NCBI GenBank assembly: GCA_001871815.1
Contig: MNVP01000085.1
Location: forward strand, 1 to 35,115
From: Candidatus Omnitrophica bacterium CG1_02_40_15
GTDB taxonomy: Bacteria; Omnitrophota; Gorgyraeia; Gorgyraeales; Gorgyraeaceae
Reading direction: 5' to 3'
DNA: 35,115 nt
Shown here piece after piece: positions 1,936 through 29,831 of this stretch (the stretch's first letter is position 1; each line of letters begins with the position of its first letter). The notes below the pieces were generated by a model, which saw nothing but the letters and a program-made list of their open reading frames with translations, had not been told where the DNA came from and did not search any database. Position numbers and translations under genes: made by a program.

Positions 1936-1988
1936 TAGCATATAGCGTTTAGCGTATAGAGAAACTAAACGCTATACGCTATCCGCTA
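1936..1988. repeat. Family A heptamer-array hairpin (TAGCGNN)n/(NNCGCTA)n
   Basis: tagcata tagcgtt tagcgta tag-agaaa-cta aacgcta tacgcta tccgcta. Encodes the tsaB end (SG*). Confidence 0.9.
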
Positions 1989-2809
1989 TATTTTACTTGA
2001 CAATCTTCTGGATACAGATATAAAGGACTGAGTTTATCCAGATTTGTTTTTTTAGCTTTTTTGATACTTCGACGGCGCCAAACCGCAGTCTTTAGGCCGC
2101 GAACAGAAGCGCCGCTCAGTATCAACCCTGAGCCTGTCGAAAGGTTGATTTTCGAGAAACCAAGCTTTATAAGATTCCCAGCTCCTGGATACCAGTATTC
2201 TTCAAGCAAAAATGCCGACTGGCGTTTATTTTTTGCCTGCCTGCCGGCAGGCAGGCTTAATTCCGCAAAGGCTTTTACGGAATCTTGATTAATATAATTT
2301 GCTATTTTGTCTCCATAAAGACTTAGCCCATCCCCTAGAAAAACAGAATCTCTTTTTACTTTCTTCAAAAACTTTTCTATGGGCAATAGCAAATAATCTG
2401 ATAACCTCGCTACCTTGCTGCCTTTTCTCCTGTAAATAGCAGCATAAACCTGGCCCCTTTTTGCATCTATTATAGGAATAATATATCTGTCTTTTCCCTG
2501 GGCATTACAAGCAATGGAATCCATGCTAGCCACGCCGATGCATGGCTTCCCTGAGGCTATGCCAAAACCTTTTATCGTGCTGACACCTATCCTTAGCCCG
2601 GTAAATGAGCCTGGGCCAAGGCCTATTATAAAAGCGCCTATCTTATTTATAGGCGTTCTGGATTTTTTTAGGAGCTCTTTTACCTTTGGCACCAGCTGGC
2701 TGGCTTGCCTTCTATCAAGTAAATGAGATTCTTCTCTTATTATATCTTCATCTTCGCTCAATGCAATGCTCAGAAATTTTGAACTTGTATCAATGCCTAA
2801 GATCTTCAA
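1979..2809 (-). CDS. tsaB: tRNA threonylcarbamoyladenosine biosynthesis protein TsaB, with two palindromic in-frame inserts
   Basis: MKILGIDTS, GPGSFTGLRIG, IDAKRGQVY, PLYL. 276 aa, longer than usual; adjacent to tsaE. Confidence 0.93.
   Translation of the reverse strand: MKILGIDTSSKFLSIALSEDEDIIREESHLLDRRQASQLVPKVKELLKKSRTPINKIGAFIIGLGPGSFTGLRIGVSTIKGFGIASGKPCIGVASMDSIACNAQGKDRYIIPIIDAKRGQVYAAIYRRKGSKVARLSDYLLLPIEKFLKKVKRDSVFLGDGLSLYGDKIANYINQDSVKAFAELSLPAGRQAKNKRQSAFLLEEYWYPGAGNLIKLGFSKINLSTGSGLILSGASVRGLKTAVWRRRSIKKAKKTNLDKLSPLYLYPEDCQVKYSG
2061..2149. repeat. In-frame REP-like doublet inside tsaB
   Basis: TTGATAC-TTCG-ACGGCGC...GCGCCG-CTCA-GTATCAA followed by ATCAACCC-TGAG-CCTGT-CGAA-AGGTTGAT. 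Read as INLSTGSGLILSGASVRGLKTAVWRRRSIK. Confidence 0.85.
2235..2292. repeat. Second in-frame palindromic insert inside tsaB
   Basis: Perfect 22-bp palindrome GCCTGCCTGCCGGCAGGCAGGC (2235-2256) plus hairpin ATTCCG-CAAAGGCTTTTA-CGGAAT. Read as INQDSVKAFAELSLPAGRQA. Confidence 0.8.
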
Positions 2810-3209
2810 TGATTACCTTTCTCTTGTTATCGCCTTTTATCTTTAATCTCACAGATATATGCTTTTCTGGCAAAATGGATTTTATCTTTTCCGCCCATTC
2901 TATTACAGTAACGCCGTTTCCATAAATATATTCTTCTATGGCCAGATTTTCTATTTCCTTTAAATCATCCAGCCTGTATAAATCAAGATGGTATAGCGGA
3001 ATTCTTCCATTGTATTCCTTTATCAAAACAAATGTTGGGCTATTTATGCGCTTAGGATCTTTCACGCCAAGGCCTTTTCCAATGCCTTTTGTAAAAGTAG
3101 TCTTGCCGCTTCCCAGATCGCCTGAAAGCGCAATTATATCCCCTGGTCTCAGTTTCCTTGCCAGCTTCTCGCCAATTAACATTGTTTCCTTAGCGCTATT
3201 CGTTATCAT
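2790..3209 (-). CDS. tsaE: tRNA t6A biosynthesis ATPase TsaE
   Basis: GDLGSGKTT Walker A, SPTF, HLDLYRL, IEWAE. Confidence 0.96.
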   Translation of the reverse strand: MITNSAKETMLIGEKLARKLRPGDIIALSGDLGSGKTTFTKGIGKGLGVKDPKRINSPTFVLIKEYNGRIPLYHLDLYRLDDLKEIENLAIEEYIYGNGVTVIEWAEKIKSILPEKHISVRLKIKGDNKRKVIIEDLRH

Positions 3210-3223
3210 GCTTCAATATCATT

Positions 3224-3299
3224 CTTCTCGAATTCGCTCGAAGAATAATATTGTTCGAGCGAATATCCTGACTATACATGTAAGCCCAGTCGAGAACTA
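3224..3299. repeat. Family C element (CTTCTCGA..CGCTCGAAGAATAATATTGTTCGAGCG..AGTCGAGAAC)
   Basis: Core identical to the copy at 23496-23598; the left arm is minimal. Confidence 0.88.
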
Positions 3300-4202
3300 T
3301 TAGAAATGAGTAAACCCACTAGGTTTAATTTTCTCTAATTTCCCATTCTTTCTTGCAAGAAAAAACCCTTTATGTATATCGCGTATTTGACCAATTCTAG
3401 AAAGCCTTGTTTCAAACGGCCATATATCCTCCAACCTATCTGCATGCTTCTCAGGTAATGTGAAAATTAATTCGAAGTCTTCGCCATCCCTCATAGCTGA
3501 ATTAAAATCTATGGCATCCTTAGAAACAGGCATTGTTTTTTCATAGATCACTGCGCCTTTATCGCTTTCTTCTAATATATGCCCCAGGTCAGCTAAAAGG
3601 CCGTCGGATATATCTATCATTGAATTAATCTTAAAATTTTTTACTAAAAACCTCGCTTCTTCAAGCCTAGGAGTAAAATTAAGGTGCTTAAGCTTTATTG
3701 AACCGCCTATATTTCCGGTAACAAATATAGCGTCTTTTTCCTTAGCCTTGCTTCTTAACGTTAAATTTTTTATTTCTACTTCTCCGATAAGCGCAATATT
3801 AATAATTATCTTGTTAGAACCAACTGTATCCCCGCCTACTAAATCAACGCTAAACCTGTCTGCAACTTTTCTTATACCCCTATATATCTCATCAGCGTAT
3901 TTTAAATCCAGAGACCCTGGAAAACCTATTGAAATAACTGCAAATTTAGGTATGCCTCCCATTGCTGCAATGTCGCTTATATTTGAAGAAAGGGCTTTTT
4001 TCCCCACCAATCTAGCCGAAGAACCTTTATAAAAATGTTTCCCCTCTAAGAGCATATCTGTTGTAAAAAGCAGGTATTTATCTTTTGTATATTTTAAAAC
4101 AGCTGCATCATCGCCTATGCCTTTTACAACCCGGTTGGACAATCTTATTGCCTTGCTTATCCTGTTTATAAAATTAAATTCTCCTAAATCTTTTAATCTC
4201 AT
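3300..4202 (-). CDS. thiL: Thiamine-monophosphate kinase
   Basis: GIGDDAA, NISDIAAMGG, GGDT, IDISDGL, GEDFEL. Confidence 0.95.
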   Translation of the reverse strand: MRLKDLGEFNFINRISKAIRLSNRVVKGIGDDAAVLKYTKDKYLLFTTDMLLEGKHFYKGSSARLVGKKALSSNISDIAAMGGIPKFAVISIGFPGSLDLKYADEIYRGIRKVADRFSVDLVGGDTVGSNKIIINIALIGEVEIKNLTLRSKAKEKDAIFVTGNIGGSIKLKHLNFTPRLEEARFLVKNFKINSMIDISDGLLADLGHILEESDKGAVIYEKTMPVSKDAIDFNSAMRDGEDFELIFTLPEKHADRLEDIWPFETRLSRIGQIRDIHKGFFLARKNGKLEKIKPSGFTHF

Positions 4203-6393: not shown

Positions 6394-6434
6394 AACAACT
6401 TTACAAACCAACAATGTCAAAATGTAAAGTTGTT
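6394..6434. repeat. Intergenic inverted repeat overlapping the CPBP stop
   Basis: AACAACTTTACA-N17-TGTAAAGTTGTT, 12-bp arms. Confidence 0.7.
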
Positions 6435-7458
6435 AGCGGAGTAACTCCTTTATAAAGAATACAAAACCTACGATAATTGAATTATGCAATATATGAATAG
6501 ATATAGATGCGATAAGCGAGCCTGTTATTTCGTACAAAAATGCCATTAAAACGCCCAGTATCATTATCGGGAGAAAACCTACGATATTAGTATGCAGCAC
6601 GCTGAATAAAGCGCCGCTCAATAACATTCCAAGAAGCGCTCCAAAGCGCTTTTTTACAGCGTTATATAAAAATCCTCTGAAAAATATCTCCTCTATTATA
6701 GGCCCAAATATAGAAACAAATATTGTCAAAAATAAAATTACACTGCTTCTCTTTTCTTCAAAAAACATATCAAATACAGGTTGCGTTGGAGGTTTATAGC
6801 CTATTGCATCCAGAAACAGCATAGATACTATAAGAACCAAGATTAAAATAGGCATTATGAAGATATACGCGGCAATCCCGGATAAAACATTTTTATAAAA
6901 ACTCTCGAACGCAATCCCAAGACTGGATAGCTTTTCTCTGTATTTTACTAAGACAAAATACAATATCACAGCCCCTGCAATTATATCTATAAAAAATGTG
7001 CCAAACATCATACGCAGGTTAACATCCATATTAAAATGAGGCGGTTTCAAAATAAAAGAGCCTACTGTGCCAAATATATATCCTGAAAATATCACTATAA
7101 TAGCAACCCTGGCTATATCCATGATACCCCATGATACTGATTTTTTTTCTGGAATTTTATTAGGCAGTATTTTCCCCCTGCCAAAAAGGAAAAGAATATT
7201 CATCGCAATGCCCGCCATAAGCATAAGAAATCCCGCAAAAAGGCTATATCTGAAAAATATTGCGCTTGGTTTTTTTGATTCAAAAAATAATCTTATTTTT
7301 CCCTCTGTAACTCCCATATCCTTAAAGGTCATTAACGAAATGGTTTTTTTATCCGGGAGGTCTTTTTTGCGCATATGCCCTATGCTAAGCAAATTGATCC
7401 CAAATATAAAAATAACCATCCAGATATATATTCGTTCGCGTCTAATAAAATCGAGCAT
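6433..7458 (-). CDS. CPBP (Abi/CAAX) family intramembrane metalloprotease
   Basis: Multi-TM; GPIIEEIFFRG, FSVLH, HILHN motifs. Confidence 0.9.
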   Translation of the reverse strand: MLDFIRRERIYIWMVIFIFGINLLSIGHMRKKDLPDKKTISLMTFKDMGVTEGKIRLFFESKKPSAIFFRYSLFAGFLMLMAGIAMNILFLFGRGKILPNKIPEKKSVSWGIMDIARVAIIVIFSGYIFGTVGSFILKPPHFNMDVNLRMMFGTFFIDIIAGAVILYFVLVKYREKLSSLGIAFESFYKNVLSGIAAYIFIMPILILVLIVSMLFLDAIGYKPPTQPVFDMFFEEKRSSVILFLTIFVSIFGPIIEEIFFRGFLYNAVKKRFGALLGMLLSGALFSVLHTNIVGFLPIMILGVLMAFLYEITGSLIASISIHILHNSIIVGFVFFIKELLR

Positions 7459-7465: not shown

Positions 7466-7496
7466 TAGCGTATAGCGGATAGCGTTTAGCGTATAG
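7466..7496. repeat. Family A heptamer array, single arm
   Basis: tagcgta tagcgga tagcgtt tagcgta tag; no complementary arm. Confidence 0.85.
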
Positions 7497-7499: not shown

Positions 7500-8264
7500 T
7501 TAAAATTTAAATAGCTTAATTGCATTTTCTGTAGTTATTTTTGCCACTTTTTCAAAGCTAATCCCTTTTATCCTTGCAACTTCTTCTGCAGCATATTTAA
7601 CATACATAGGTTCATTACGTTTCCCCCTGAAATCCTGGGGGGCCAGAAACGGCGCATCTGTCTCAATAAGAAGCCTGCCCATAGGGACCAGTTTTACAAT
7701 TTCCCTGAGCTTATCAGAATTTTTATAAGTGATATTACAGGTAAAAGATATAAAAAATCCCATATCCAAACATGTTTTTAGAAATTTTTCATCTCCTGAA
7801 AAACAGTGCATTACTCCGCTGACTGAACTGCCTATGACATCTTTTAAGATATCAATAATATCCATATGAGCATCGCGATTATGTATTATCAAGGGGAGAT
7901 TTGCGGGTTTTGCAGTTTCAAGAAGCCTGATAAATAGTTTCTTCTGATTTTCGCGAGATGAAATATTTTTATAATAATCAAGCCCGATTTCACCTATTGC
8001 CACAACTTTCGGCTTATTAAGAAACTTCGCGAAAAGTTTAATATCATTTTCGGTTACGCTATCAGCTTCATGGGGATGAATGCCTATAGCCGCATAAATA
8101 AAATCATTCTCCCCAGCAATCCTTATAGACCTAACTGTCCCTTCCATGCTGGAACCAACATTTATGATAAACCTTATGCCGCTGTCTATGGAACGCTTTA
8201 AAACAGTGCCCATATCATCTTTAAAATCCTTAAAGTCCAGATGGCAATGCGTATCTATCAGCAT
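7500..8264 (-). CDS. tatD: TatD-family DNase
   Basis: IDTHCHL, GIHPH, IGEIGLDYY, HNRDA, HCFSG, ETDAP, RNEP. Confidence 0.93.
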   Translation of the reverse strand: MLIDTHCHLDFKDFKDDMGTVLKRSIDSGIRFIINVGSSMEGTVRSIRIAGENDFIYAAIGIHPHEADSVTENDIKLFAKFLNKPKVVAIGEIGLDYYKNISSRENQKKLFIRLLETAKPANLPLIIHNRDAHMDIIDILKDVIGSSVSGVMHCFSGDEKFLKTCLDMGFFISFTCNITYKNSDKLREIVKLVPMGRLLIETDAPFLAPQDFRGKRNEPMYVKYAAEEVARIKGISFEKVAKITTENAIKLFKF

Positions 8265-15626: not shown

Positions 15627-15710
15627 TAGCGAATAGCGTATAGCGGATAGCGGATAGGTCTTTTTGCATGGAATTTTTTCTATACGCTATCCGCTCTACG
15701 CTAAACGCTA
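15627..15710. repeat. Family A heptamer-array hairpin with 22-nt spacer
   Basis: tagcgaa tagcgta tagcgga tagcgga tag-GTCTTTTTGCATGGAATTTTTT-cta tacgcta tccgctc tacgcta aacgcta. Supplies the ispD end (SV*). Confidence 0.9.
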
Positions 15711-17504: not shown

Positions 17505-17525
17505 AGCTCCCTTCTATGGTATAAC

Positions 17526-17578: not shown

Positions 17579-17583
17579 GATTT

Positions 17584-18315: not shown

Positions 18316-18341
18316 TTTACCCCCTTTATATTACATGCTAT

Positions 18342-18456
18342 CGCTGAACTACGCAGAACTTAACGCGGAATTACGCTGAAACTACATGCTAATTTCCGCG
18401 TTTTTCCGCGTCTGCTCCGAGTAAAACTAGGAGCAGCTTCTGCGTTATTCCGCGAT
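18342..18456. repeat. Family D decamer-array hairpin (ACGCNGAA units)
   Basis: Four (A)CGC[TAG]GAA units, then four TTC[CT]GCG units with inserted hairpin CTGCTCC-GAGTAAAACTA-GGAGCAG. Matches 31040-31180. Confidence 0.87.
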
Positions 18457-18458
18457 TA

Positions 18459-19208
18459 TTACGCGTCTTCTGTAATCGGCCCTTTTGCCGCTCCTGTTAT
18501 AAACTGTTTTACTATCGGATCTTTTGTATTCTTAATTTCATCAGGCGTCCCAATAGTTATAATCTTCCCTTTATATAACATCGCTATCCTGTCAGCTATT
18601 TTAAAAGCGCTGACCATGTCATGAGTTACAACTATGGATGTTACGTTCAATTTATTATTCAAATCTACGATAAGGCCATTTATCGCATCAGCCATTATTG
18701 GATCTAATCCTGTAGTCGGCTCATCGTATAATATAATCTTTGGGTTATTGCAGATCGCTCGCGCAAGCCCTACCCTTTTTTTCATCCCTCCGCTTAGCTC
18801 GCTAGGCATCAGATTCTCTATGCCCTTTAAACCCACAAGCTCCAGAGCATCTGCAACTTTTTTCCGAATCTCTGAGCCTGAAATAACAGTATGCTCTCTT
18901 AATTTAAATCCTACATTCTCTCCCACTGTCATTGAATCAAATAAAGCAGCGCCCTGGAAAAGCATTCCGAAGCTAAGCCTAAGCTTATCCATCTCGTATT
19001 CTTCAAGCCTTGTCATATCGTTCCCATCTATAATAACCTGGCCCATATCAGGTTTTATAAGCCCTATTATATGCTTTAATAGCACGCTTTTCCCGCAGCC
19101 TGAACGGCCTATTATAACAATTCTCTCGCTTGAATTTATAATAAGATTCAGATTATCTAATACCTTTGAGCTAGTGAATGATTTGGAAAGATTTATGATT
19201 TCTATCAT
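18459..19208 (-). CDS. mlaF: ABC ATPase of Mla/MCE system
   Basis: GRSGCGKS, FQGAALFDS, LSGGMKKRV, YDEPTTGLDP, VTHD; adjacent to mlaD. Confidence 0.9.
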   Translation of the reverse strand: MIEIINLSKSFTSSKVLDNLNLIINSSERIVIIGRSGCGKSVLLKHIIGLIKPDMGQVIIDGNDMTRLEEYEMDKLRLSFGMLFQGAALFDSMTVGENVGFKLREHTVISGSEIRKKVADALELVGLKGIENLMPSELSGGMKKRVGLARAICNNPKIILYDEPTTGLDPIMADAINGLIVDLNNKLNVTSIVVTHDMVSAFKIADRIAMLYKGKIITIGTPDEIKNTKDPIVKQFITGAAKGPITEDA

Positions 19209-19213
19209 ATTCT

Positions 19214-19290
19214 TAGCGTAGAGCGTTTAGCGTATAGCGTATAGGGATAATAGCTATTATTATCCGCTATACGCTCTACGCTATCCGCTA
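19214..19290. repeat. Family A heptamer-array hairpin
   Basis: tagcgta gagcgtt tagcgta tagcgta tag, palindromic spacer ATAATAGCTATTAT, then tccgcta tacgctc tacgcta tccgcta. Last CTA is the ruvB stop. Confidence 0.9.
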
Positions 19291-20328
19291 AAACAACTCT
19301 TTCTGCGCTTCCTTTTTATACGGCACCTTTAAATGATCGTATGCCAGTTTTGTAACTTCCCTGCCCCTTGGCGTCCGCTTAAGAAATCCTATTTTCAATA
19401 AAAACGGCTCCACGACATCTACTATGGTATCGCTCTCTTCATTCAGGGTTGCGGCAAGCGATTCTATGCCCACCGGCCCACCGTCATAAAAATCAATTAT
19501 TGCTTTCATGACTTTTCTATCTATGTCATCCAGGCCCGCGTTATCTATCCTGTGCGACGCAAGGCCGGCAATAGCAATCTCCTTGTCTACCTTCTTATTG
19601 CCTTTTACTTCGCTGTAATCCCTTACTCTTCTTAAGAGCCTGTTGGCTACGCGGGGCGTGCCGCGCGAACGGCTCGCAATCTCAATAGCTGCGTCTTCAT
19701 TAAGAGGTATATTTAAAAGTTCTGCGGACCGCTCTATTATTTTTACCAGGTCATCCGCCTCATAAAATTCAAGGTGGTAAAACATGCCGAACCTGCTTCT
19801 TAAAGGCGCGCTCAATAATCCTGCGCGGGTTGTAGCGCCGATAAGCGTAAATCTTTTTAAATTGAACTTTATGGTCTTTGCGTAAGGCCCTTTATCTATA
19901 AGAAAATCTATCTGAAAATTTTCCATAGCAGGGTATATAAATTCTTCTACAACCTTTGACAGCCTGTGAATCTCATCGATAAAAAGTATATCTCTCTCGC
20001 CAAGATTAGTAAGAATCCCTATAAGATCTCCTGCCCTTTCTATAGCGGGCCCTGAGGTAGCGGTAATCTTGGCTCCCATCTCGCGGCTTATGATATGGGC
20101 AAGCGTTGTCTTTCCCAACCCAGGGGGGCCTGAAAGCAGAATATGCTCAAGGCCTTCTTTTCTTTTTTTTGCCGCCTTTATTGCGATATTTACATTTTCG
20201 ATTACATGCTTCTGGCCTATAAAATTCTTGAAACTGTCAGGCCTCAAGGAAATATTACATACTGCCTCTTCCTCTGCTTCCTGGCCGGTAATCAGTCGTT
20301 CGCGATCGTCTTTATTATTTTCTATCAT
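19288..20328 (-). CDS. ruvB: Holliday junction branch migration helicase RuvB
   Basis: SLRP, GPPGLGKTT, FIDEIHR, GATTRAG, RGTPR, RTPRGR. Confidence 0.97.
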   Translation of the reverse strand: MIENNKDDRERLITGQEAEEEAVCNISLRPDSFKNFIGQKHVIENVNIAIKAAKKRKEGLEHILLSGPPGLGKTTLAHIISREMGAKITATSGPAIERAGDLIGILTNLGERDILFIDEIHRLSKVVEEFIYPAMENFQIDFLIDKGPYAKTIKFNLKRFTLIGATTRAGLLSAPLRSRFGMFYHLEFYEADDLVKIIERSAELLNIPLNEDAAIEIASRSRGTPRVANRLLRRVRDYSEVKGNKKVDKEIAIAGLASHRIDNAGLDDIDRKVMKAIIDFYDGGPVGIESLAATLNEESDTIVDVVEPFLLKIGFLKRTPRGREVTKLAYDHLKVPYKKEAQKELF

Positions 20329-20338
20329 ATACCTTTAT

Positions 20339-20415
20339 TAGCGTATAGCGTAGAGCGTTTAGCGGATAGGTCTTTTTGCATGGAATTTTTTTTATACGCT
20401 CTACGCTAAACGCTA
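20339..20415. repeat. Family A heptamer-array hairpin with the same spacer as the 15627 copy
   Basis: tagcgta tagcgta gagcgtt tagcgga tag-GTCTTTTTGCATGGAATTTTTTT-ta tacgctc tacgcta aacgcta. Last CTA is the ruvA stop. Confidence 0.9.
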
Positions 20416-21042
20416 TTTTTTAGACTTCTGTTTGTACACCTCATTCAGAAGATCCTCTGCTGTCTTTATCTCCGGATTGCGTTTTAATGCTTCATCCAGC
20501 ATATTTTTGGCTTCGAATTTTTTATACTGTAGCTGCAATAAAACGCCCATTGCCTCTTCTTCTATCCCATGCTTGAGCGTAAAGGCTCTAGCTCCATTTC
20601 TAGTATCCTGGATAAGCCCGAATTTTCCCACCTTACCCTGAAGTTTTGCCACAATCTCTCTTGCTCTCTGCTCTCCAATGCCGGGCAGGGACTTTAAAAA
20701 AGGCACATCGGCCGTATCGATTGCCTGGGCAATCATGGATATAGGCATCTTCAATGCCCTTACAGCAGCCTTTGGCCCGATACCTGACACTGTTATAAAC
20801 TTTTCAAAAAATTCTTTTTCTATTTCATTCAGAAAACCTATCAGGCATTGGAACCCTTTGGATGGTTCCAGCTGAAAATAATGGTATGTGATAAGAGAAA
20901 TAACCCCATCCGGTTGTACGCTATTTTCAAGGCATTGCATCACAGCGCCTGGAATAAATACTTCATAACACATCCCATTTACATCCAGCAATATTGACTC
21001 TTCTTTTTTTTCTAATAACTTACCTGTAATTCTGCAAATCAT
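20413..21042 (-). CDS. ruvA: Holliday junction DNA-binding protein RuvA
   Basis: MICRITG start, VSGIGPK and LPGIG HhH motifs; between ruvC and ruvB. Confidence 0.92.
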   Translation of the reverse strand: MICRITGKLLEKKEESILLDVNGMCYEVFIPGAVMQCLENSVQPDGVISLITYHYFQLEPSKGFQCLIGFLNEIEKEFFEKFITVSGIGPKAAVRALKMPISMIAQAIDTADVPFLKSLPGIGEQRAREIVAKLQGKVGKFGLIQDTRNGARAFTLKHGIEEEAMGVLLQLQYKKFEAKNMLDEALKRNPEIKTAEDLLNEVYKQKSKK

Positions 21043-21520
21043 TTCTATGCCCCCATATATTGGCATGCGTAATTGCAAGAGCCAGAGCATCTGTAACATC
21101 AACTGGTTCAGGTGGATTCTTTAACCCCAATAAACTTGTAACAGTTCTCTGCACCTGTTCTTTTGAAGCTCTGCCGCGTCCAGTAATCGCTTTTTTTATC
21201 TTCGTAGTAGGGTAATTCACAAGCAAGACATCCTGATGCTCAACTGCAAGGCATATCGCGCCCCGCGCGTGAGCCATCAGTATGGAAGTCTTCGGATGTT
21301 TGTAATGAGAATACAGCTCTTCCAAAACCACTGCCTCAGGCAATGTATCTTTTATTAAGTTCATGACTTTTTTATAAATACTGGCCAGTCTTTTTTCCAT
21401 CTTATCTTTTGCATTAGACCTTATAATGCCAGCTTCCATCAATTTGACATTATTGCCGCATGCATCTATGAGGCCGTAACCTGTAATTCCAAGACCTGGA
21501 TCTATCCCCAGAATTCTCAT
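21020..21520 (-). CDS. ruvC: Crossover junction endodeoxyribonuclease RuvC
   Basis: ILGIDPG, KKAITGRGRASKEQV, DVTDALALA. Confidence 0.95.
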   Translation of the reverse strand: MRILGIDPGLGITGYGLIDACGNNVKLMEAGIIRSNAKDKMEKRLASIYKKVMNLIKDTLPEAVVLEELYSHYKHPKTSILMAHARGAICLAVEHQDVLLVNYPTTKIKKAITGRGRASKEQVQRTVTSLLGLKNPPEPVDVTDALALAITHANIWGHRNDLQNYR

Positions 21521-21528
21521 TATGCCTT

Positions 21529-22311
21529 TTACGGAAATATAAAATAAAATAGCGCGGTGAAAAGACAGTCAGCCGCGATTATTAAAATAAACGAAATAAC
21601 AACAGAGCGGGTTGTGGCCTTTCCTACTCCCTCGGCCCCGCCCTCTGTAATAAAACCTTCATAGCATGAAACTATGCATATAATTATTGCGAATATAAGC
21701 GACTTAAAAAGCCCTGTGAATAAATCCTTGAACGCAAGCGTATCGAATGTCATTTTCCAGTATATGGTAGAACCTATCAGAAGCTTATAAACTCCTATCA
21801 TATATCCGCCTATTATACCTATAAAATCTGCGTAAACTGTAAGCAAGGGGAGCATAATACATAGCGCGAGAAACCGCGGCACAACAAGGTATTTCACGGG
21901 ATTTGCGGCAAGGGTCTTCAAAGCATCTATTTGCTCGCTCACCTTCATTGTCCCGAGTTCTGCAGTGATACTGGCCCCTACCCTGCCCGCAATAACAAGC
22001 GCTGTCAAAACAGGCCCGAGTTCCCTGAGCATAGAAAGCGCCACAAGGCTTGATATATACATCTGAGCGTTCATTTTTGTCAACTGATACGCGCTCTGAA
22101 GCGCCAGCACCATTCCTGTGAATAGCGCAACCATAAAAACTATAGGAAAACTCATGACGCCTATCTTGTGCATCTGTATAATCCATTCTTTTTTTCTGAA
22201 AGGCAGGACAAATACCTGAAATATCGTGCCGACCATCAGAGTAAATGTGCCGCCTATATAAATAAAAAAATTCAGCGCTTTTTTACCCAGATTATTTATC
22301 CACTCTTTCAT
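21529..22311 (-). CDS. mlaE: MlaE-family ABC permease
   Basis: RELGPVLTAL, AGRVG, AELGTMKVSEQIDAL, GGAEGVGKATT. Confidence 0.93.
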   Translation of the reverse strand: MKEWINNLGKKALNFFIYIGGTFTLMVGTIFQVFVLPFRKKEWIIQMHKIGVMSFPIVFMVALFTGMVLALQSAYQLTKMNAQMYISSLVALSMLRELGPVLTALVIAGRVGASITAELGTMKVSEQIDALKTLAANPVKYLVVPRFLALCIMLPLLTVYADFIGIIGGYMIGVYKLLIGSTIYWKMTFDTLAFKDLFTGLFKSLIFAIIICIVSCYEGFITEGGAEGVGKATTRSVVISFILIIAADCLFTALFYFIFP

Positions 22312-22315
22312 AATT

Positions 22316-22490
22316 AATGAGCGCTTGACTTATGGAGCGAGTAAAACGAGCGAACATAAGTCAATGCGCGAATTAATCCCGCCCTTTTGAATAGCAAGCT
22401 GAGAAACCTTGCTAAAAGGGCGGGATAAGTTCGGACAAATAAGTTACGTCACATACTTCTTGGAATAGGGCTCCGTAACTTATGTCCTCA
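22316..22490. repeat. Family B three-hairpin element, copy 1
   Basis: AATGAG..TTGACTTATG/CATAAGTCAA..CGAATT, then ATCCCGCCCTTTT..AAAAGGGCGGGAT, then TTCGGAC..ATAAGTTACG/CGTAACTTAT..GTCCTCA. Confidence 0.92.
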
Positions 22491-22491
22491 C

Positions 22492-23484
22492 TTAAAATCT
22501 CTTTTTATGCTCTATGCCAAAAAATTCTTCATTTTCTTTTAATTTCATCTGAAATACCTGGCCATTATCCAGCTTGTATTCCAGGCTCATCTCGTCCAGA
22601 TTGTCCCTTTTTTTATAAGGGGGCAATTCTTCTCTAGCGAATGTCTTAAACCCAACTGATACCTTGTCGCCGATATCCTTAACCATCTTAAGGCTATCGT
22701 AGCCATCTTTACTTATATCCCAGCCGTCCCATACTATTGTTTTCATATCAGACTTCAGTTTTATGTAACTCAGGAGATCAGAGCCCACAACATTTCTCAG
22801 GTCTATATAACCTTCCATTGTAAAAGTAGCCTGAGCCTGCTTGATCCTGGAAGCCACTATGTTGATTATAGGCCCTATGCCCTGTATTCTTATATCAGCG
22901 GAATCATACCATATAGGGCCTATCTTCCCAGATCTAGAGCTTATAAAACCGCTTGATTGGAGGTTATTGAGCGGGCCTTTTATATTGAAAAGTCCGTTCA
23001 TGACGCCAGTCACAACGCCTGGCCTTTTTGCCTTTGTCATTATTGCAATATCTTTTAAGTTCGCCCTGAGTATTTCAAAATATATATTTGTTTCAAACTG
23101 CTTTTTTAATCTTACAGTGCCTTTTAAACGATATGCATTTCCAAAATTCAGAGAATAGGCCTCAAACTTATCTTTTGTAAGCTTGAAGAATACCTTTAAA
23201 TCCGGCAACGCGCTTGAATTTATGGTCATATTGCTGGAATAAAGTTTCCCAGTCAGGCCATTATCTTTTAACACCTTGGCCTTTAAAATAAAATTGCCGG
23301 ATAGGATCGCGCCTTTAATATCCAGATTGTCTATTTTTAATTCTGAAACCAACTCTTTATTGTCAAAGAGATAAAGATTCAGAGAAACTGCTTTATCGAT
23401 TCCTAAATCTATCGCTCTGGCGCTGGCTGTAACAACAAAGATTGAGCTTGCAGCCAATGCTATGATCTTTAAATTATATTTCAT
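22492..23484 (-). CDS. Exported beta-rich hypothetical protein (possibly AsmA/TamB-like)
   Basis: 330-aa ORF in operon orientation; signal peptide-like N-terminus (ASARA); alternating hydrophobic/Gly beta pattern; C-terminal Phe. Family assignment is inference. Confidence 0.7.
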   Translation of the reverse strand: MKYNLKIIALAASSIFVVTASARAIDLGIDKAVSLNLYLFDNKELVSELKIDNLDIKGAILSGNFILKAKVLKDNGLTGKLYSSNMTINSSALPDLKVFFKLTKDKFEAYSLNFGNAYRLKGTVRLKKQFETNIYFEILRANLKDIAIMTKAKRPGVVTGVMNGLFNIKGPLNNLQSSGFISSRSGKIGPIWYDSADIRIQGIGPIINIVASRIKQAQATFTMEGYIDLRNVVGSDLLSYIKLKSDMKTIVWDGWDISKDGYDSLKMVKDIGDKVSVGFKTFAREELPPYKKRDNLDEMSLEYKLDNGQVFQMKLKENEEFFGIEHKKRF

Positions 23485-23495
23485 ATATAAACATG

Positions 23496-23598
23496 TACTT
23501 CTCGACTCTGCTCTCTTGATATGCTATCGTGACCGCTCGAAGAATAATATTGTTCGAGCGGACGTCATTGCCATACTTGTAAGTTCAGTCGAGAACTA
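23496..23598. repeat. Family C element
   Basis: TACTTCTCGACT-arm1-CGCTCGAAGAATAATATTGTTCGAGCG-arm2-AGTCGAGAACTA. Confidence 0.9.
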
Positions 23599-23605
23599 TC
23601 TGTAA

Positions 23606-26062
23606 TTATTTTAATACAAGCTTCCCGTTCTCTGCAGTCACCTTTACAGGTTTCCCTTTTTCAAAACGTTTTGAGATAATTTCCTCTGCCAAAGGATCTT
23701 CCAGAAATCTTTGTATAGTACGCTTCAAAGGCCTTACGCCAAAAATAGGGTCAAAACCTTTCTCTATCAAAAAGTCTTTTGCCGACTGGTCAAGGCTTAT
23801 ATCCACAGACTGCTCTTTCAGCCTGGCCTTAACCTCTTCCATCTCTATTTCTATAATCTTATAGAGATCCTCTTTTGTAAGCGGATGGAATACTATTATA
23901 TCGTCAATCCTGTTTAAAAATTCAGGTTTAAATGTTTTTTTAACCTGATCCAGAAGCCTTTCTTTCATATCCTTGTAAGTGACTTCCTGGGATTCTGATT
24001 TAAAACCAAGGGAACCCTGTTTCCTGAATATCTCTGCTCCAACATTGGATGTCATGATAAGTATTGTATTTCTAAAGTCCACTTTTCTGCCGAAACTATC
24101 TGTAAGGCGCCCGTCTTCCAGAACCTGAAGCAGTATATTAAACACATCAGGGTGAGCCTTTTCTATTTCATCCAAAAGTACGACTGAGTAAGGCCTGCGC
24201 CTGACTTTTTCTGTAAGCTGTCCGCCTTCTTCATAGCCTACATATCCGGGAGGCGCTCCTACAAGCCTCGACACATTAAATTTTTCCATGTACTCAGACA
24301 TATCAAGTTGTATGAGCGCATCTTCATTGCCGAACATGAATTCTGCAAGGACTCGCCCCAAATGGGTTTTGCCTACGCCTGTAGGCCCAAGGAATATAAA
24401 AGAGCCTATCGGCTTCTTTGGATCCTTTATGCCCGCGCGCGAACGCCTGACTGCATGGGCAATAGCGCTTATAGGCTCATCCTGGCCAATTACCCTATTG
24501 TGCAGCTCTTCTTCCATCTTCATAAGCCTTTCAGACTCTTTTTCTTCAAGCCTGAAAATGGGTATGCCTGTCCATTTTGAAACTATATTGGCGATCATTT
24601 CTTCGTCAACCTTTGGCCTGGCTTCCATCCTGGATTTTTTCCATTCCTCGCGCGTCTTGTCTAGCCTTAGCCTGGCTTTCTTCTCCTCATCCCTCAGATT
24701 AGCGGCTTTTTCAAAATCCTGGTTTTTTATCGCAGAATCTTTTTCTTTATGGATATTCTCTATCTCGCTCTCCATATCCTTTATTTCCTTAGGAGCAGTC
24801 ATAATGGAAAGCCTGGCCTTTGCGCCTGCTTCATCTATCAAGTCTATAGCCTTGTCAGGTAAAAACCTTCCTGCGATATACCTGTCCGAAAATTTGGCTG
24901 CAGCATCTACCGCAGAATCCGTAATCTCAACTCTATGATGAGCTTCATACCTGTCCCTGAGGCCTTTTAGTATTTCCACTGTTTCATTGACACTGGGAGG
25001 TTCAACCATAATTGTCTGAAAACGCCTTTCAAGCGCAGCGTCTTTTTCTATGTGTTTTCTGTACTCATCCAAGGTAGTTGCTCCTATACACTGTATCTCG
25101 CCTCTTGAAAGAGCGGGTTTCAGTATATTTGAAGCGTCTATTGCGCCTTCTGCGCCTCCGGCCCCAACCAGAGTGTGTAATTCATCAATAAAAATAATCA
25201 CATTTTCAGACCTCTTTATCTCATCCATTACTGCTTTTATTCTCTCTTCAAACTGGCCTCTATATTTTGTGCCAGCTACCATAAGCGCAAGATCCAGGAT
25301 TATCACCTTTTTATCCTTTAATATTTCAGGCACATCGCCTTTCACTATATTTTGCGCAAGGCCCTCTACTATTGCTGTTTTCCCGACACCTGCCTCGCCT
25401 AAGAGCACTGGATTATTTTTTGTGCGCCTTGAAAGTATCTGGATAACCCTTTCTATTTCGTTCTCTCTCCCTATTACAGGGTCTAATTTATTGTCGCGCG
25501 CAAGTTGAGTCAGGTTTCTGCCAAACGCGTCAAGCGCAGGAGTTCTAGAGCCTGTTCTCTGCTGCGAAGCATGGCCTGCTACTTGAGCCTGTCCTTGCTG
25601 ATGGCCTCCGAAACCAGGCTGCATGTTAGAGCCTAAAAGCTCTGCTATCTCTTCTCTAACTTTATTCAGATCAAGCCCAAGATTTACCAGCACCTGAGAC
25701 GCAACGCCTTCACCCTCTCTTATAAGGCCTAATAAAATATGCTCTGTGCCTATATAGTTATGGCCGAGAGACCTTGCCTCTTCGCTTGAAAGCTCTATGA
25801 CTTTTTTAGCTGTAGGAGTGAAAGGTATGTCCCCTGAGACAACTGTAGGCGGGCCTGGTTTCACAATCTTTTCTATCTCCATCCTTATCTGCTGTAGATT
25901 TAGGCCCATTTTTTGAAGCACGACTGCAGCCACGCCTTCCCCTTCTCTTAAAAGCCCAAGCAATATATGCTCAGTGCCTATATAATCGTGATTAAACCTC
26001 TTCGCCTCTTCTTTTGCTAAAAGTATGACTTTCCTCGCGCGTTCTGTGAATCTGTTGAACAT
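23606..26062 (-). CDS. clpC: ATP-dependent Clp protease ATPase ClpC
   Basis: [10 protein letters not shown], two Clp-N repeats, GEAGVGKT and [11 protein letters not shown] middle domain, [12 protein letters not shown] loop; AAGGAGGG SD. Confidence 0.97.
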
Positions 26063-26078
26063 GATCAAACCCTCCTTA

Positions 26079-26138
26079 TAGCGTTTAGCGTATAGCGGAT
26101 AGGAAAACTATACGCTAAACGCTATACGCTATCCGCTA
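26079..26138. repeat. Family A heptamer-array hairpin
   Basis: tagcgtt tagcgta tagcgga tag-gaaaa-cta tacgcta aacgcta tacgcta tccgcta. Confidence 0.9.
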
Positions 26139-26146
26139 ATCATTTA

Positions 26147-27196
26147 TTACTTCCCCAACTTCTCCCTGATTATCTCCGCCCTTTTAACGTCTCTTTGATT
26201 AGGGCTGAGTTTTTTCTTTTCCAGTTTTTGAAGGTGCGCAGGCTGAGTTATCACAAAAAGTTCATTAATAAGAGTCCTGTCTGCCTGTTTTATTACGCCT
26301 AAATCAACTCCCAGCCTTGCAAGCGAAAGAAGATTTATGGTCTCTGTGCTTGTTATTATATGGGCGCTTTTCAATGTCCCATATGCCCTCCATATCCTGT
26401 CTTCCAAGGCTTCTCTATTTTGCGAAAGAAGCGTTTCTCTAGCGCTTTGTTCGTGATCGACTATCTGTTTTATAATCCTATCTATGTTATCGATTATATC
26501 GTCCTCTTTAGGGCCCAGAGAAACCTGGTTTGATATCTGGAAAAAATTACCGCTCGCCTCCGTACCCTCCCCGTATAGGCCGCGCGCAGTCAGACTTAAT
26601 TTTGTAATAGCCTGCAGCACTTTTCCGATCTGTTTCGTCATTACAAGCGACGGCAAATGCAGCATTACAGATGCCCTCATGCCGGTCCCTGTATTTGTAG
26701 GGCAGGCTGTGAGGTAGCCGAAATCCATGGAATACGCAAAATCCAGGGAATTCCCTAATTCAGTATCTATGTCATTTATTATCTGCCATGCATCTTTTAA
26801 ATTAAAACCTGATTTCATGACCTGCATGCGCAGGTGGTCTTCTTCATTGATCATTATGCTGATGACTTCATCCTGGCCCACAGACAGGCCTTTATTTTCC
26901 GCGTCTATCATATGTTCCTTGCTCATAAGATGCCTTTCCACAAGAAATTGCTTATCTATAGAGTCCAGCTTTCCTATTTCCACAAATAATGAGTCTTTTA
27001 ATTTTTTGAGCGACAAAATACTTTCTTTTGAAGTCCAAAGGACTGCCTCCTGTTCTTTCTTGCTTGCCCAGTGAGAAAAAGGATAATTCGCAAGATTTCT
27101 TGCCAGCCTTACGCGCGAAGACATCACTATATCACAGACAGGGCCTGTGCACCTGATCCACTCGCCGGTATTATTTAAAAGATCGTCTAAGGTCAT
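26147..27196 (-). CDS. mcsB: Protein-arginine kinase McsB
   Basis: SSRVRLARN, INEEDHLR, GYLTACPTNTGTG, RGLYGEG, QPAHLQ; between mcsA and clpC. Confidence 0.95.
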   Translation of the reverse strand: MTLDDLLNNTGEWIRCTGPVCDIVMSSRVRLARNLANYPFSHWASKKEQEAVLWTSKESILSLKKLKDSLFVEIGKLDSIDKQFLVERHLMSKEHMIDAENKGLSVGQDEVISIMINEEDHLRMQVMKSGFNLKDAWQIINDIDTELGNSLDFAYSMDFGYLTACPTNTGTGMRASVMLHLPSLVMTKQIGKVLQAITKLSLTARGLYGEGTEASGNFFQISNQVSLGPKEDDIIDNIDRIIKQIVDHEQSARETLLSQNREALEDRIWRAYGTLKSAHIITSTETINLLSLARLGVDLGVIKQADRTLINELFVITQPAHLQKLEKKKLSPNQRDVKRAEIIREKLGK

Positions 27197-27208
27197 GAAT
27201 CCTCCTTC

Positions 27209-27376
27209 AATGAGCACTTGACTTACGGAACAAGCATAGCGAGTGAACGTAAGTCAATGCGCGAATTGAATCCCGCCCTTTTGAATAGCAAGTTGAGAAA
27301 AATTGCTAAAAGGGCGGGATAAATTCGGACAAATCACTTACGGAAACCATAGGTTTCCGTAAGTGATGTCCTTATT
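27209..27376. repeat. Family B element, copy 2
   Basis: Same architecture; third hairpin ATCACTTACGGAAACC-ATA-GGTTTCCGTAAGTGAT; abuts the mcsA stop. Confidence 0.92.
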
Positions 27377-27872
27377 TATTATTCTTCTTCTCTAATTCTC
27401 TTATCTTATCCCGCAGTTTCGCTGCTTCTTCAAAATCCTCTTTCTGTATTGCCTTCTGAAGTTTTTCCTTCAAGGCATCGAATTCATTCTTTGCCTTGAC
27501 TATCTTGACTATTTTTTTAGGGGATTTGCCATAGTGCTGCGTGGACCCGTGTATCCTTTTTAAAAGAGGGGCGAGCGCTTCTTTAAAAGCATTATAGCAT
27601 TCGCCGCAGCCAAGCCTTCCCACCTTTTTAAAATCTTCATAGGTAAGCCCACACTTAGGGCATTTAAGCTTAGGCTCTGTTTTTGTTTTATTGAACTGCG
27701 TGCCAAGATCAGCGAGGCCTGCCAAAAGATCAGAAAGCCCGAAATGGCTTTCCATTTGGGCGCCTTTTTTCTGAGCGCATTCTTCGCACAGATGCAGCTC
27801 TGTTATTTGTTCATCTATTATTTCTGTAAGATGCACTGTAGCCTGGCTCTTGCCGCATATATTGCAAACCAT
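27372..27872 (-). CDS. mcsA: McsA (UvrB/UvrC-motif zinc-binding activator of McsB)
   Basis: Four CxxC motifs, GRLGC, IHG..H.GK, EDFEEAAKLRD; ATG 27872 with AAGGAGG SD. Confidence 0.94.
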   Translation of the reverse strand: MVCNICGKSQATVHLTEIIDEQITELHLCEECAQKKGAQMESHFGLSDLLAGLADLGTQFNKTKTEPKLKCPKCGLTYEDFKKVGRLGCGECYNAFKEALAPLLKRIHGSTQHYGKSPKKIVKIVKAKNEFDALKEKLQKAIQKEDFEEAAKLRDKIRELEKKNNK

Positions 27873-27885
27873 TATTTCCTCCTTC

Positions 27886-28091
27886 AATGAGCACTTGACT
27901 TACGGAACAAGCATAGCGAGTGAACGTAAGTCAATGCGCGAATTGAATCCCGCCCTTTTGAATAGCAAGCTGAGAAAAATTGCTAAAAGGGCGGGATAAA
28001 TTCGGACAAATCACCCAGCACCTTTTTAATATTCAGCATCTTTTCTTTAAAAACTTTAAATACATAAAAGGTGCTGGGTGATGTCCTCATT
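27886..28091. repeat. Family B element, copy 3
   Basis: One mismatch to copy 2 over the shared part; third hairpin ATCACCCAGCACCTTTT..AT-rich loop..AAAAGGTGCTGGGTGAT. Confidence 0.92.
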
Positions 28092-28963
28092 TAATATTTT
28101 ATGCCATCCGTCTTTGTTAATTTTCTGAATTCCTTCATCAGATTTAATGTAATTTTCCCTGGTTTTCCGTCTCCGATAACCCTTTTGTCCACGCGCACAA
28201 CAGGTATGATCTCTGCCGCAGTGCCTGTAAGAAAACACTCGCTAGCCGTAAAAATATTATGCCTTGTAATTACTTCTTCTTTTACTGCCATGCCAATCTT
28301 CTTTGCAATATCCATCACGCACGCCCTTGTAATGCCTTTAAGTATCCCGAGATAAGCAGGCGGAGTGATCAGGTTATTATCTTTTATAATAAAAATATTA
28401 TCTCCTGTGCATTCTGCCACATATCCATGGGCGGTAAACATTAATGCCTCTTCATATCCGCAGTTTAATGCCTCTATTTTTGCAAGAATATTGTTAAGGT
28501 AATTCAGAGATTTAATCTGAGGATTTAATGCCTCTGGTATATTCCTTGGCGTAGGCACTGTAATAATGCTCAATCCTTCCTTGTACATCTTTTCAGGATA
28601 AAGCTTTATGTTATCTGTAATGATAATAATAGAAGCGGACTTGCACTTCCTTGGATCCAGGCCCAGATCCCCTATGCCTCTTGTAACAATAAGCCTGATA
28701 TAGGCATTGTCCAGCTGATTTAATTTAAGCGTTTCCACGATTGCCTTTATCATGTCTTCTTTGGAAAGCGAAATATTTAGCATGATGCCTTGACTAGACT
28801 CGTAAAGCCTGTCTATATGCTCCTTTAATTTAAAAATAAGCCCAGCATATGAGCGGATGCCTTCAAACACTCCGTCGCCGTACAAAAGCCCGTGGTCAAA
28901 AACAGAAATCTTTGCCTCGTTTTTCTCAAAATATTCACCATTAATATAAACCTTTAATCCCAT
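28091..28963 (-). CDS. ilvE: Branched-chain amino acid aminotransferase
   Basis: DHGLLYGDGVFEG, KSLNY, LKGITR, FLTGTAAE, GKPG. Confidence 0.94.
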   Translation of the reverse strand: MGLKVYINGEYFEKNEAKISVFDHGLLYGDGVFEGIRSYAGLIFKLKEHIDRLYESSQGIMLNISLSKEDMIKAIVETLKLNQLDNAYIRLIVTRGIGDLGLDPRKCKSASIIIITDNIKLYPEKMYKEGLSIITVPTPRNIPEALNPQIKSLNYLNNILAKIEALNCGYEEALMFTAHGYVAECTGDNIFIIKDNNLITPPAYLGILKGITRACVMDIAKKIGMAVKEEVITRHNIFTASECFLTGTAAEIIPVVRVDKRVIGDGKPGKITLNLMKEFRKLTKTDGIKY

Positions 28964-28976
28964 ATCTCCTCCTAAT

Positions 28977-29096
28977 GTTCTCGACTCGCTTCGTACATTC
29001 GCTTCGCTCAGTACTTCTTTCGGTCGCTCGCTCGAACAATATTAATATTCTTCGAGCGGTCACGAGAGCATATCAAGAGAGTAGAGTCGAGAAGTA
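28977..29096. repeat. Family C element, inverted relative to 23496
   Basis: Arm GTCACGAGAGCATATCAAGAGAGTAG is the near reverse complement of arm1 at 23508-23533. The other arm contains a nested TTCG-CTTCG-CTCA unit. Confidence 0.9.
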
Positions 29097-29098
29097 AA

Positions 29099-29773
29099 TT
29101 ATATTATTCTCCCATCCTTCATTTCTACAATTCTATCCGCTCTTCGCGCTATTTCTTTATCGTGAGTAACAATCACAATCGCTGTTTTATTCTTTTTATT
29201 AAGATTAAACAATATATTCAATATCTCCAGGCCCATTTCAGAATCCAGGTTACCTGTAGGCTCATCGCACAAGAGCACCTTTGGATTATTTATCAAGCCC
29301 CTTGCTATAGCAACTCTCTGCTGCTCTCCTCCTGAAAGTTCGCTCGGCCTGTGGCGCATTCTTTTCCCAAGCCCTACATCTTCCAGTAAAACCTCAGCTC
29401 TATTTTTCGTCGTTCGTCGTTCGTCGTTCGTGTTTCGTATGCCTATCAGACTAGGCAGCATTACATTTTCCAATGCTGTAAAATCAGGGAGCAGGTAATA
29501 AAATTGAAATACAAATCCTATTTTTTGATTTCTAAACCTGGCTCTTTTAATATCATCCAGGCTGTAAAAATCAGAGTTGTCCAGAAATACTTTACCCGAG
29601 CTTGGCTTATCTATGCCGCCCAATATATGCAAAAGCGTTGACTTACCGGCTCCTGAAGGCCCTACAATTGTAATTACTTCATCTTTTCTTAATTCTAAGC
29701 TAACCCCCCTTAAAACATGCAGCTCTCTTTTGCCATCTTTATATATCTTATGTACATTATCAGCTCGTAACAT
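29099..29773 (-). CDS. lolD: Lipoprotein-releasing ABC ATPase LolD
   Basis: GPSGAGKS, IGFVFQF, LSGGEQQRV, DEPTGNLD, VTHD; downstream of lolC/E. Confidence 0.88.
   Translation of the reverse strand: MLRADNVHKIYKDGKRELHVLRGVSLELRKDEVITIVGPSGAGKSTLLHILGGIDKPSSGKVFLDNSDFYSLDDIKRARFRNQKIGFVFQFYYLLPDFTALENVMLPSLIGIRNTNDERRTTKNRAEVLLEDVGLGKRMRHRPSELSGGEQQRVAIARGLINNPKVLLCDEPTGNLDSEMGLEILNILFNLNKKNKTAIVIVTHDKEIARRADRIVEMKDGRII
29406..29440. repeat. Heptamer array inside lolD
   Basis: ttcgtcg ttcgtcg ttcgtcg ttcgtgt ttcgtat (5x7 nt), read as IRNTNDERRTTK. Confidence 0.85.
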
Positions 29774-29778
29774 AATAT

Positions 29779-29831
29779 TAGCGGATAGCGGATAGAAAAA
29801 CTATACGCTATACGCTCTACGCTAAACGCTA
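29779..29831. repeat. Family A heptamer-array hairpin
   Basis: tagcgga tagcgga tag-aaaaa-cta tacgcta tacgctc tacgcta aacgcta. Confidence 0.9.

Follow-up and report, generated by a model that had tools for sequence, protein, structure and literature searches.

Why should a run of ordinary bacterial genes carry, at seven places between them, short arrays of one seven-base unit, most of them folded back into hairpins? The question is raised by a 35,115-nucleotide (nt) stretch of DNA from Candidatus Omnitrophica bacterium CG1_02_40_15 (MNVP01000085.1; hereafter the window), which is contig C87 of an assembly of 1.17 Mb in 92 contigs (39.6% G+C, ~80% complete). We refer to this source genome as G000, and other G-numbers denote other genomes compared. 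The arrays, here called Family A, are built of heptamers with an AGCG core. The explanation that we favor, and consider probable, is that Family A represents gene-less copies of a small palindromic cassette, of the 23S ribosomal RNA intervening sequence (IVS) type, which spread in a recent burst specific to this lineage. The full cassette would consist of two inverted arms of about four heptamers each around a PF05635 gene, encoding an S23p/Avd-like four-helix-bundle protein. The window copies would have kept the arms and a short loop, in very short spacers of co-transcribed housekeeping genes.

In the window, the word AGCGNNNAGCG (AGCG-N3-AGCG) has 34 matches, where 100 dinucleotide-preserving shuffles lead one to expect 0.93 ± 0.93, and 32 of these matches fall in the seven Family A sites. 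The other two, at 9938 and 18206, are isolated two-unit chance pairs unrelated to the family. An initial annotation of this DNA, made from the letters alone, had listed seven copies (1936, 7466, 15627, 19214, 20339, 26079 and 29779), all of which were found where it placed them, and had correctly described a constant AGCG core with variable flanks (tagcgTA, GA, TT or AA, with some gagcg). Six of the copies are hairpins and the one at 7466 is a solo arm. All lie between protein-coding genes, and none is in helix 25 or 45 of 23S ribosomal RNA (rRNA).

In the genome as a whole, G000 contains 49 Family A arms with 193 units, arranged as 21 hairpins plus solo arms. The canonical element is ~67 nt long and reads T, four times AGCG plus three bases, and AG, followed by a loop of about five A/T and the inverted arm; including its TAG, each arm is 31 nt per side. 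The order of units differs between copies, as first reported, but their number is not freely variable, exactly four being present in 42 of the 49 arms. For this reason window copies with two or three units are taken as truncated 4+4 forms. Predicted RNA folds for all 21 hairpins, on both strands, range from -17 to -47 kcal/mol, with z-scores of -4 to -10.7 against mononucleotide shuffles, and the arms are inverted repeats able to pair over ~28 bp, in the manner of an IVS.

The four core columns contain 0-0.5% non-consensus bases and the three variable columns 32%, 20% and 19%. Named by their variable bases, 178 of the 193 units are of four types, TAT (65 units), GAT (48), TTT (33) or TAG (31); a slightly different arm filter gives GAT 50 and TTT 32. 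One-base changes from TAT comprise 116 transversions and 3 transitions. Because the core is fixed, the alphabet restricted and transversions dominant, free point mutation of one ancestor does not fit, and the genome-wide tabulation of units, arms and spacers bears out the small restricted alphabet proposed in the initial annotation. The accompanying idea that units are freely added or shuffled did not survive, since arm length is fixed at four, the consensus is position-specific and whole words recur. One arm has the consensus GAT TAG TAT GAT, and for the other it is TAG TTT TAT/TTT TAT. Next to the loop, one arm has GAT in 14 of 21 cases and the other has TAT in 20 of 21, and one inner arm position is TAG in 10 of 19 arms. 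The 36 complete arms hold 29 distinct four-unit words, some of which recur up to three times, implying that copying of whole elements also occurs; the arm words of the copy at 19214, for example, match those of the G000 copy at C1:11533. Neighboring units match in 19 of 118 cases, where 28 would be expected, and the arrays are thus not tandem copies of one identical heptamer.

The arms of one copy are not mirrors of each other, again as first described. Among the 21 G000 hairpins, 7 of 77 mirrored unit pairs are identical, where 20% would be expected from permutation of partner arms after orienting the elements; 2 of 10,000 permutations were as low, a figure that treats related copies as independent and is not a clean probability. 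In a second G000 family of the same design, built of TAAG plus three variable bases, and in the metagenome cassettes described below, the corresponding values (10/94 against 14.5% expected, and 23/179 against 16%) do not differ from chance. Compensatory pairing at the variable positions was sought in all families and found in none, and the stem consists of paired AGCG/CGCT blocks with mismatches between them.

The copies at 15627 and 20339 have a 22-nt spacer in common and yet differ in their arms, which had also been noticed at the outset. Their cores are identical and their spacers nearly so, the differences being four variable-base changes and one whole-unit deletion. From this pattern, the variation in units would most likely stem from in-register recombination, gene conversion and slippage among the ~50 arms, and an inherited constraint may add to it, in that the last codons and the stop of the cassette gene lie in the 3' arm. 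Among 401 genomes of the phylum, this spacer form was found only in G000, with one-mismatch matches in G106 and G186. The possibility that it is a remnant of the gene was rejected: its best score against cassette leaders was 26, and shuffled spacers had a mean of 26.7 and a maximum of 34.

The window copies are recent insertions. Contigs syntenic with the window are available from two sister genomes of the same genus (G005:C37 and G011:C38), with flanking DNA 86-98% identical and RuvB 97% and 95% identical. In both, the Family A element is missing at all seven window sites, and the TAAG-family elements at 16421 and 17538 are missing as well, so that nine of nine sites are empty. Terminal inverted repeats together with presence or absence between close relatives are features of miniature inverted-repeat transposable elements (MITEs). 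At the ruvA-ruvB site, the same RuvA C-terminus is closed by TAA in G005 and G011 and by the first TAG of the element in G000. Separately, the 15600-15720 site in G005 and G011 (L319-L323) has a different palindrome at that junction, and the 16421 site in G011 has a palindrome resembling a repeat beside a gene on G000 C3 that is like those for REP-associated tyrosine transposases (RAYTs; REP, repetitive extragenic palindromic).

The four-unit AGCG arm pattern had no match in 10 of 12 other genomes of the same genus. The exceptions are G004, with three Family A arms, and G010, where the two matches belong to a homogeneous AGCGACG repeat. Family A is also present in G022 and G024, of the same family and other genera, and in G030, G035 and G039, of other families; G030 has 86 arms, and among the 42 G022 units on record, 37 come from the four-unit alphabet seen in G000. 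A census of genome contigs, which is no guide to distribution, returned at least 122 loci, dominated by homogeneous heptamer tandem repeats of many phyla. Mixed-unit arrays were a minority among the matches listed, those examined including metagenome-assembled genomes (MAGs) of Omnitrophota and Atribacterota, and none of the 122 matches listed had an open reading frame (ORF) with a motif like that of the intervening-sequence protein (IVP). On five Atribacterota MAG contigs (L052, L070, L092, L101 and L126), four-unit TAGCG arms run on into blocks of different heptamers to form mosaics, and Family A or its grammar therefore extends past Omnitrophota.

The sequencing runs that contain the sequence are groundwater metagenomes, that is, DNA. 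Their Logan contigs stop at the arms and no empty-allele joint was reported, which makes them uninformative on polymorphism or expression. One contig of run X3 (depth 3.9) corresponds to the copy at 19214 with a loop 10 nt shorter (window 19245-19260), a weak observation from a single contig.

The link to the IVS comes from gene-bearing relatives of these arrays. Genes of PF05635 (23S rRNA intervening-sequence protein) were found in 21 of 41 related genomes, and 32 of the ~55 gene matches were examined for flanking arrays. An array with a lag of 7, above the 99th percentile of shuffles, was present on at least one side in 24 of the 32 loci and on both sides in 18; other loci have arrays of period 6, 8 or 9. 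The flanking arrays abut the start and stop codons in inverted orientation, and the heptamer is specific to each cassette. In G000, the TAAG family comprises 25 gene-less hairpins and 6 solo arms, besides which the genome has looser arrays of ACGA and AAGG cores. The sole PF05635 gene of G000 (C68:28740-29102) is bracketed by TAAG-family arms, the gene-bearing copy being C68:28702-29106.

Cassettes with AGCG arms were found by scanning metagenome contigs for three or more AGCG units, a gap of 335-365 nt and then three inverted units. The scan returned at least 116 loci, and among the matches listed 53 of 116 carry an IVP-type ORF, recognized by its N-terminal motif. Among these, 48 of 53 ORFs are at least 110 amino acids (aa) long, the gene encoding 116-131 aa. 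One cassette protein run through Pfam matched PF05635 with an E-value of 2.7e-37; against bAvd (PF22296) the match was weak (6.5e-6) and below the curated cut-off, and its nearest solved homologue is 2gsc, a five-chain entry. The L236 cassette has seven of eight arm units the same as the G000 hairpin at C69:11183. In a quick version of a tree of PF05635 proteins, a single clade (SH-aLRT support 96) contains 39 of the 48 proteins with AGCG arms, and other-armed proteins fall outside it. The arm type is therefore inherited with the protein, a pattern that fits specific recognition and is not proof of it. A separate feature was seen in L246, L302, L300 and L304, where the 5' arm and the first ~15 bases of the PF05635 ORF are repeated in tandem two to three times ahead of an intact gene, as though insertion of cassettes into one another, or recombination between them, had taken place at the same point.

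The layout of the cassettes accounts for some features of the arms. The cassette start codon lies 0-20 nt past the 5' arm, a GTG start often overlapping the last G of the arm, and among the matches listed 45 of 53 loci have the stop of the ORF within the 3' arm, 36 of them at one common offset. The innermost unit of the 3' arm provides an isoleucine codon, for which TAT and GAT are synonymous, and a TTT in the next unit gives a TAA stop. This coding overlap explains part of the arm asymmetry and of the position preferences. On the outer side, 41 loci have a flank of 150 nt or more, and in 36 of these an upstream co-directional open frame terminates at -8 to +24 relative to the 5' arm, often at +3, +10, +17 or +24, which are the TAGs of successive units; the stops fall in successive frames because 7 is not a multiple of 3. 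Read towards the loop, a TAG every seven bases means that a run of units closes two or three frames and can replace an upstream stop. Three frames are closed by 25 of 44 Family A arms and two by the remaining 19, where 7% of shuffles close three, and all 49 of 49 TAAG-family arms close three. In the window, four of the seven copies supply the stop codon of the upstream gene, and the next start codon is 3-14 nt past the element. Insertion would be tolerated at such sites through arms that close the frames and replace the upstream stop, with the downstream start close by. By analogy with the rRNA IVS, the arms, once transcribed, would probably form an imperfect ~30-bp stem open to cleavage by RNase III; G000 has an RNase III gene (C62:1367-1750).

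Several observations weigh against this explanation. No ORF lies between the arms in the seven window copies or the 21 G000 Family A hairpins, and because no PF05635 ORF is inside, we class the window copies as gene-less relatives and not as full IVS members. No AGCG-armed PF05635 gene was found in the ~80% of G000 that is assembled, or among the IVP genes inspected in G022, G030, G035 and G039, which leaves the gene-less copies without a cognate gene in view. Among the metagenome matches listed, 63 of 116 loci have no IVP-type ORF motif. Of six such loci examined, three are composites of other repeats, one consists of neighboring hairpins around a short host segment, one has no clear ORF and one perhaps contains a reversed, broken copy of the gene. 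In 10 TAAG-family copies the long loops do not resemble the interior of the gene-bearing G000 cassette (z -0.6 to 1.9), and since they score no better than shuffled controls, an origin by deletion is unproven; the gene could instead be cargo gained by a hairpin. Closure of all frames was dropped as a general rule, being only a tendency in other cassettes, where 14 of 30 close three frames against 25% of shuffles. Target-site duplication could not be established at junctions that are too diverged, a TA duplication fitting the sites 20339 and 29779 and the others not clearly. No reverse transcriptase was found in G000, at its ~80% completeness, and we know of no transposase-like activity of PF05635 proteins. 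Transcription of the copies and their processing by RNase III are drawn from the analogy with the rRNA IVS.

How the cassette might spread is a separate matter. We put forward tentatively, as a possibility that is on the whole unlikely, that the arms serve as an address for the cassette's own pentameric Avd-like protein, which would use lineage-specific recognition of the heptamer to copy or insert the element. Each arm would then offer five evenly spaced sites, the four AGCG cores and the terminal TAG, and the intermediate might be RNA or single-stranded. If so, these elements would constitute a new class of mobile element built on a non-transposase protein, and the sets of about four heptamers in Geobacter, Beggiatoa and cyanobacteria, as well as the rRNA IVSs, would be its footprints.

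Much of the same evidence could be read in terms of regulation. In that case the arms would be iterated binding sites, as the initial annotation had also suggested, through which a host regulator or the PF05635 pentamer would act on the translation or mRNA stability of the flanking genes. The invariant core and strict period suit such a role, as does the fivefold make-up of the arm. Both S23p and Avd have been reported as pentamers, Avd being an RNA-binding barrel with a positive charge, the closest solved homologue has five chains, and comparable heptamer sets have been published as regulator sites (PMC2700814, PMC4679880). Arm type also follows the PF05635 phylogeny, although co-inheritance alone explains this. 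We nevertheless judge the regulatory reading improbable: all seven copies are missing in the sister species with the same operons, which shows that these genes can do without them, no common functional theme unites the flanking genes, and at the same junctions other genera have unrelated hairpins. At ruvA-ruvB, several of these hairpins consist of heptamers with different cores, and this variety, together with changes in number by whole units and the frequency of homogeneous heptamer tandem arrays in many phyla, would be expected if the arrays had formed where they lie, at the edges of genes, through slippage during replication and synthesis templated by hairpins, as a mutational habit of the lineage. 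Such an origin is very unlikely, however, in view of the complete 4+4 elements that occur at unrelated sites with the same core, loop type and recurring arm words, the unique 22-nt spacer common to two copies, the same arms around a conserved gene in metagenomes, and the clean empty sites in sister genomes, which show no shorter precursors.

Two more familiar kinds of hairpin fare worse. Movement of REP elements, or of their inverted doublets (REPINs), by a RAYT, a Y1 HUH transposase, is suggested by the presence of two Y1_Tnp-type genes in G000 and by the inverted doublets and occasional singlets of Family A, which recall REPIN and REP. We regard it as extremely unlikely, because no AGCG arms lie within 600 nt of either Y1 gene, the C3 gene being flanked by a different palindrome, and because a single Family A arm is a tandem heptamer array and itself no palindrome. 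The link to RAYTs was accordingly rejected. It is just as hard to credit that the copies are intrinsic terminators or attenuators of host operons, despite their stable predicted hairpins between genes. The 19 terminator-like sites (stem plus T-run) include none of the five elements that lie in 15000-30500, copies occur within operons directly ahead of start codons, they are missing in the sister species, and neither rRNA nor any other Rfam family has a match anywhere in the window. With no Rfam match and no stem followed by a T-run, assignment to a known RNA family or to terminators was likewise rejected.

A burst of gene-less IVS-type cassettes can be compared with several known systems. The closest published relative is the IVS of Coxiella burnetii, which according to the available text (PMC4990558) spans 428 nt within 23S rRNA and has an S23p ORF, a terminal stem of 28 bp that RNase III cuts in its middle, and three heptamers plus a degenerate fourth ahead of the ATG, with a strain-variable number of units. 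The same text presents the element as selfish, names homologues in Leptospira, Brucella and Xanthomonas, and cites the Xanthomonas S23p as a homopentamer. A ~28-bp stem, about four heptamers on the 5' side, a variable unit number and, in the gene-bearing form, a PF05635 gene after the repeats are thus common to both, and the gene-bearing relatives of Family A match this layout exactly. In contrast to the Coxiella IVS, Family A is found between protein genes and in dozens per genome, lacks an ORF in the window copies, and has arms that mix unit variants and mostly mismatch at mirrored units. RNase III excision has been shown for the rRNA IVS, whereas for Family A we only infer it.

Dispersed sets of heptamers have been reported elsewhere. 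In the account available for Geobacter metallireducens (PMC2700814), 49 elements of four tandem heptanucleotides have no known function, and 'class 3' sites are pairs of five heptanucleotides on opposite strands. As in Family A, there are four to five heptamers, often in inverted pairs at a variable distance, dispersed between or within genes; unlike Family A, the heptamer is another one, the elements are interpreted as regulator binding sites or regulatory RNAs, and no link to PF05635 is reported in that account. The TAACTGA direct repeats of Beggiatoaceae, cyanobacteria and Bacteroidetes, according to the portion available of PMC4679880, provide stops in all frames ahead of start codons. They resemble Family A in having two to six heptamers just past stop codons and just ahead of start codons, and stops in three frames, and also in a patchy phylogenetic distribution that suggests horizontal transfer. 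They differ in that the units are identical and direct, with one inverted set only, and in that no hairpin or gene is described in that portion.

Among other repeats, the heptamer arrays of the short tandemly repeated repetitive (STRR) type in cyanobacteria resemble Family A, and the relation is one of resemblance only. Like REP/REPIN-RAYT systems and MITEs, Family A is short, non-coding, palindromic, intergenic and present in many copies, varies in presence between close relatives, and has gene-bearing and gene-less forms with the same ends. Unlike in those systems, the associated gene does not encode a known transposase, the RAYT genes in G000 lie beside another repeat, the arms are tandem heptamers and not unique terminal repeats, and no target-site duplication was found. 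The Avd protein of diversity-generating retroelements belongs to a homologous four-helix-bundle fold family and is described in the sources available as an S23-like, RNA-binding, pentameric positively charged barrel (bioRxiv 10.1101/2023.10.23.563531, PMC10053308). Unlike in Avd systems, there is no reverse transcriptase, template or variable repeat near the cassettes examined, and the unit variation of Family A is not adenine-specific. No report of a link between PF05635 and heptamer repeats outside rRNA was found in the literature, in a search with thin coverage of subscription journals that is not proof of absence.

To our knowledge, rRNA IVSs and S23p genes have been familiar since the 1990s without a known function or mode of spread. 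At this locus the same design, an inverted stem made of heptamers that may or may not enclose a PF05635 gene, multiplies between the ordinary genes of a free-living lineage. The locus therefore joins two puzzles, that of the rRNA IVSs and that of the scattered groups of some four heptamers known from Geobacter, Beggiatoa and cyanobacteria, and the link made here for Family A may help explain seven-base repeat arrays between bacterial genes. For further work it offers paired gene-bearing and gene-less copies, a defined arm grammar and a candidate partner protein related to Avd. For annotation, it matters that these elements supply stop codons, occupy start regions and break metagenome assemblies.

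The window genes are all on the minus strand and of a housekeeping kind (alr, tsaB/tsaE, metG, cysS, ispD/ispF, ruvABC, mcsB-clpC, lysS and parts of an Mla-type transporter). The seven copies and their surroundings are given in the table.

Table. Family A copies in the window; hairpins are described by the number of units in each arm, and folds are predicted for RNA.
Position	Strand	Form	Arms	Location	Fold	Remarks
1937..1988		truncated hairpin	left degenerate (one core-changed unit + 2 units), right 3 units	between tsaB (1979-2809, minus) and alr (789-1919, minus)	-20.8 kcal/mol, z -7.0	tsaB stop TAG 1979-1981 within element
7466..7496	+	solo arm, four heptamers + TAG	no inverted partner	between tatD (7500-8264, minus) and CAAX-protease-like gene (6433-7458, minus)		
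15627..15710		full 4+4 hairpin	15628-15655 and 15682-15709	ispD/ispF junction	-40.8 kcal/mol	22-nt spacer 15658-15679; ispD stop TAG 15701-15703 within arm
19214..19290		full 4+4 hairpin	19215-19242 and 19262-19289	ruvB/MlaF-like ABC ATPase gene junction	-40.1 kcal/mol	enlarged loop; outermost TAG 19288-19290 is ruvB stop codon
20339..20415		4+3 hairpin	20340-20367 and 20394-20414	ruvA/ruvB junction		22-nt spacer 20370-20391; outermost TAG 20413-20415 is ruvA stop codon
26079..26138		3+4 hairpin	26080-26100 and 26110-26137	mcsB/clpC junction	-29.7 kcal/mol	clpC ribosome-binding site directly after element
29779..29831		2+4 hairpin	29780-29793 and 29803-29830	MacB/FtsX-type permease gene/ABC ATPase gene junction	-16.6 kcal/mol	

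The two TAAG-family hairpins of the window, at 16421-16470 (between ispD and a PIN-domain gene) and 17538-17573 (between the PIN-domain gene and an MlaD-like gene), follow the grammar of Family A. Long loops of both families have in common an AAAAT(T)CCAT motif, often near AAAAAGAC or AAAAAGG, as at C70:5810, C70:10211, C21:241, C4:16252, C60:5443 and window 15658-15679; these loops have no match to the cassette gene, and the motif perhaps represents a third small module that sits inside them.

Three other features of the window were noted. A five-unit array of a CGTTCGT-like heptamer at 29404-29438 runs in frame within the ATPase domain of an ABC ATPase gene (29099-29773), and the alignment with G005 and G011 continues across it with no large gap, which shows that it did not arrive by recent insertion. 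A perfect 16-bp palindrome with a 3-nt loop, picked up only in the scan for terminator-like sites, occupies the spacer between an mcsA-like gene and mcsB (27333-27367) and is unrelated to the heptamer families. The region 33001-33509 contains an 85-aa ORF without any Pfam match and, after it, a gene for a ParE-type toxin of 83 aa; the two probably form a toxin-antitoxin pair.

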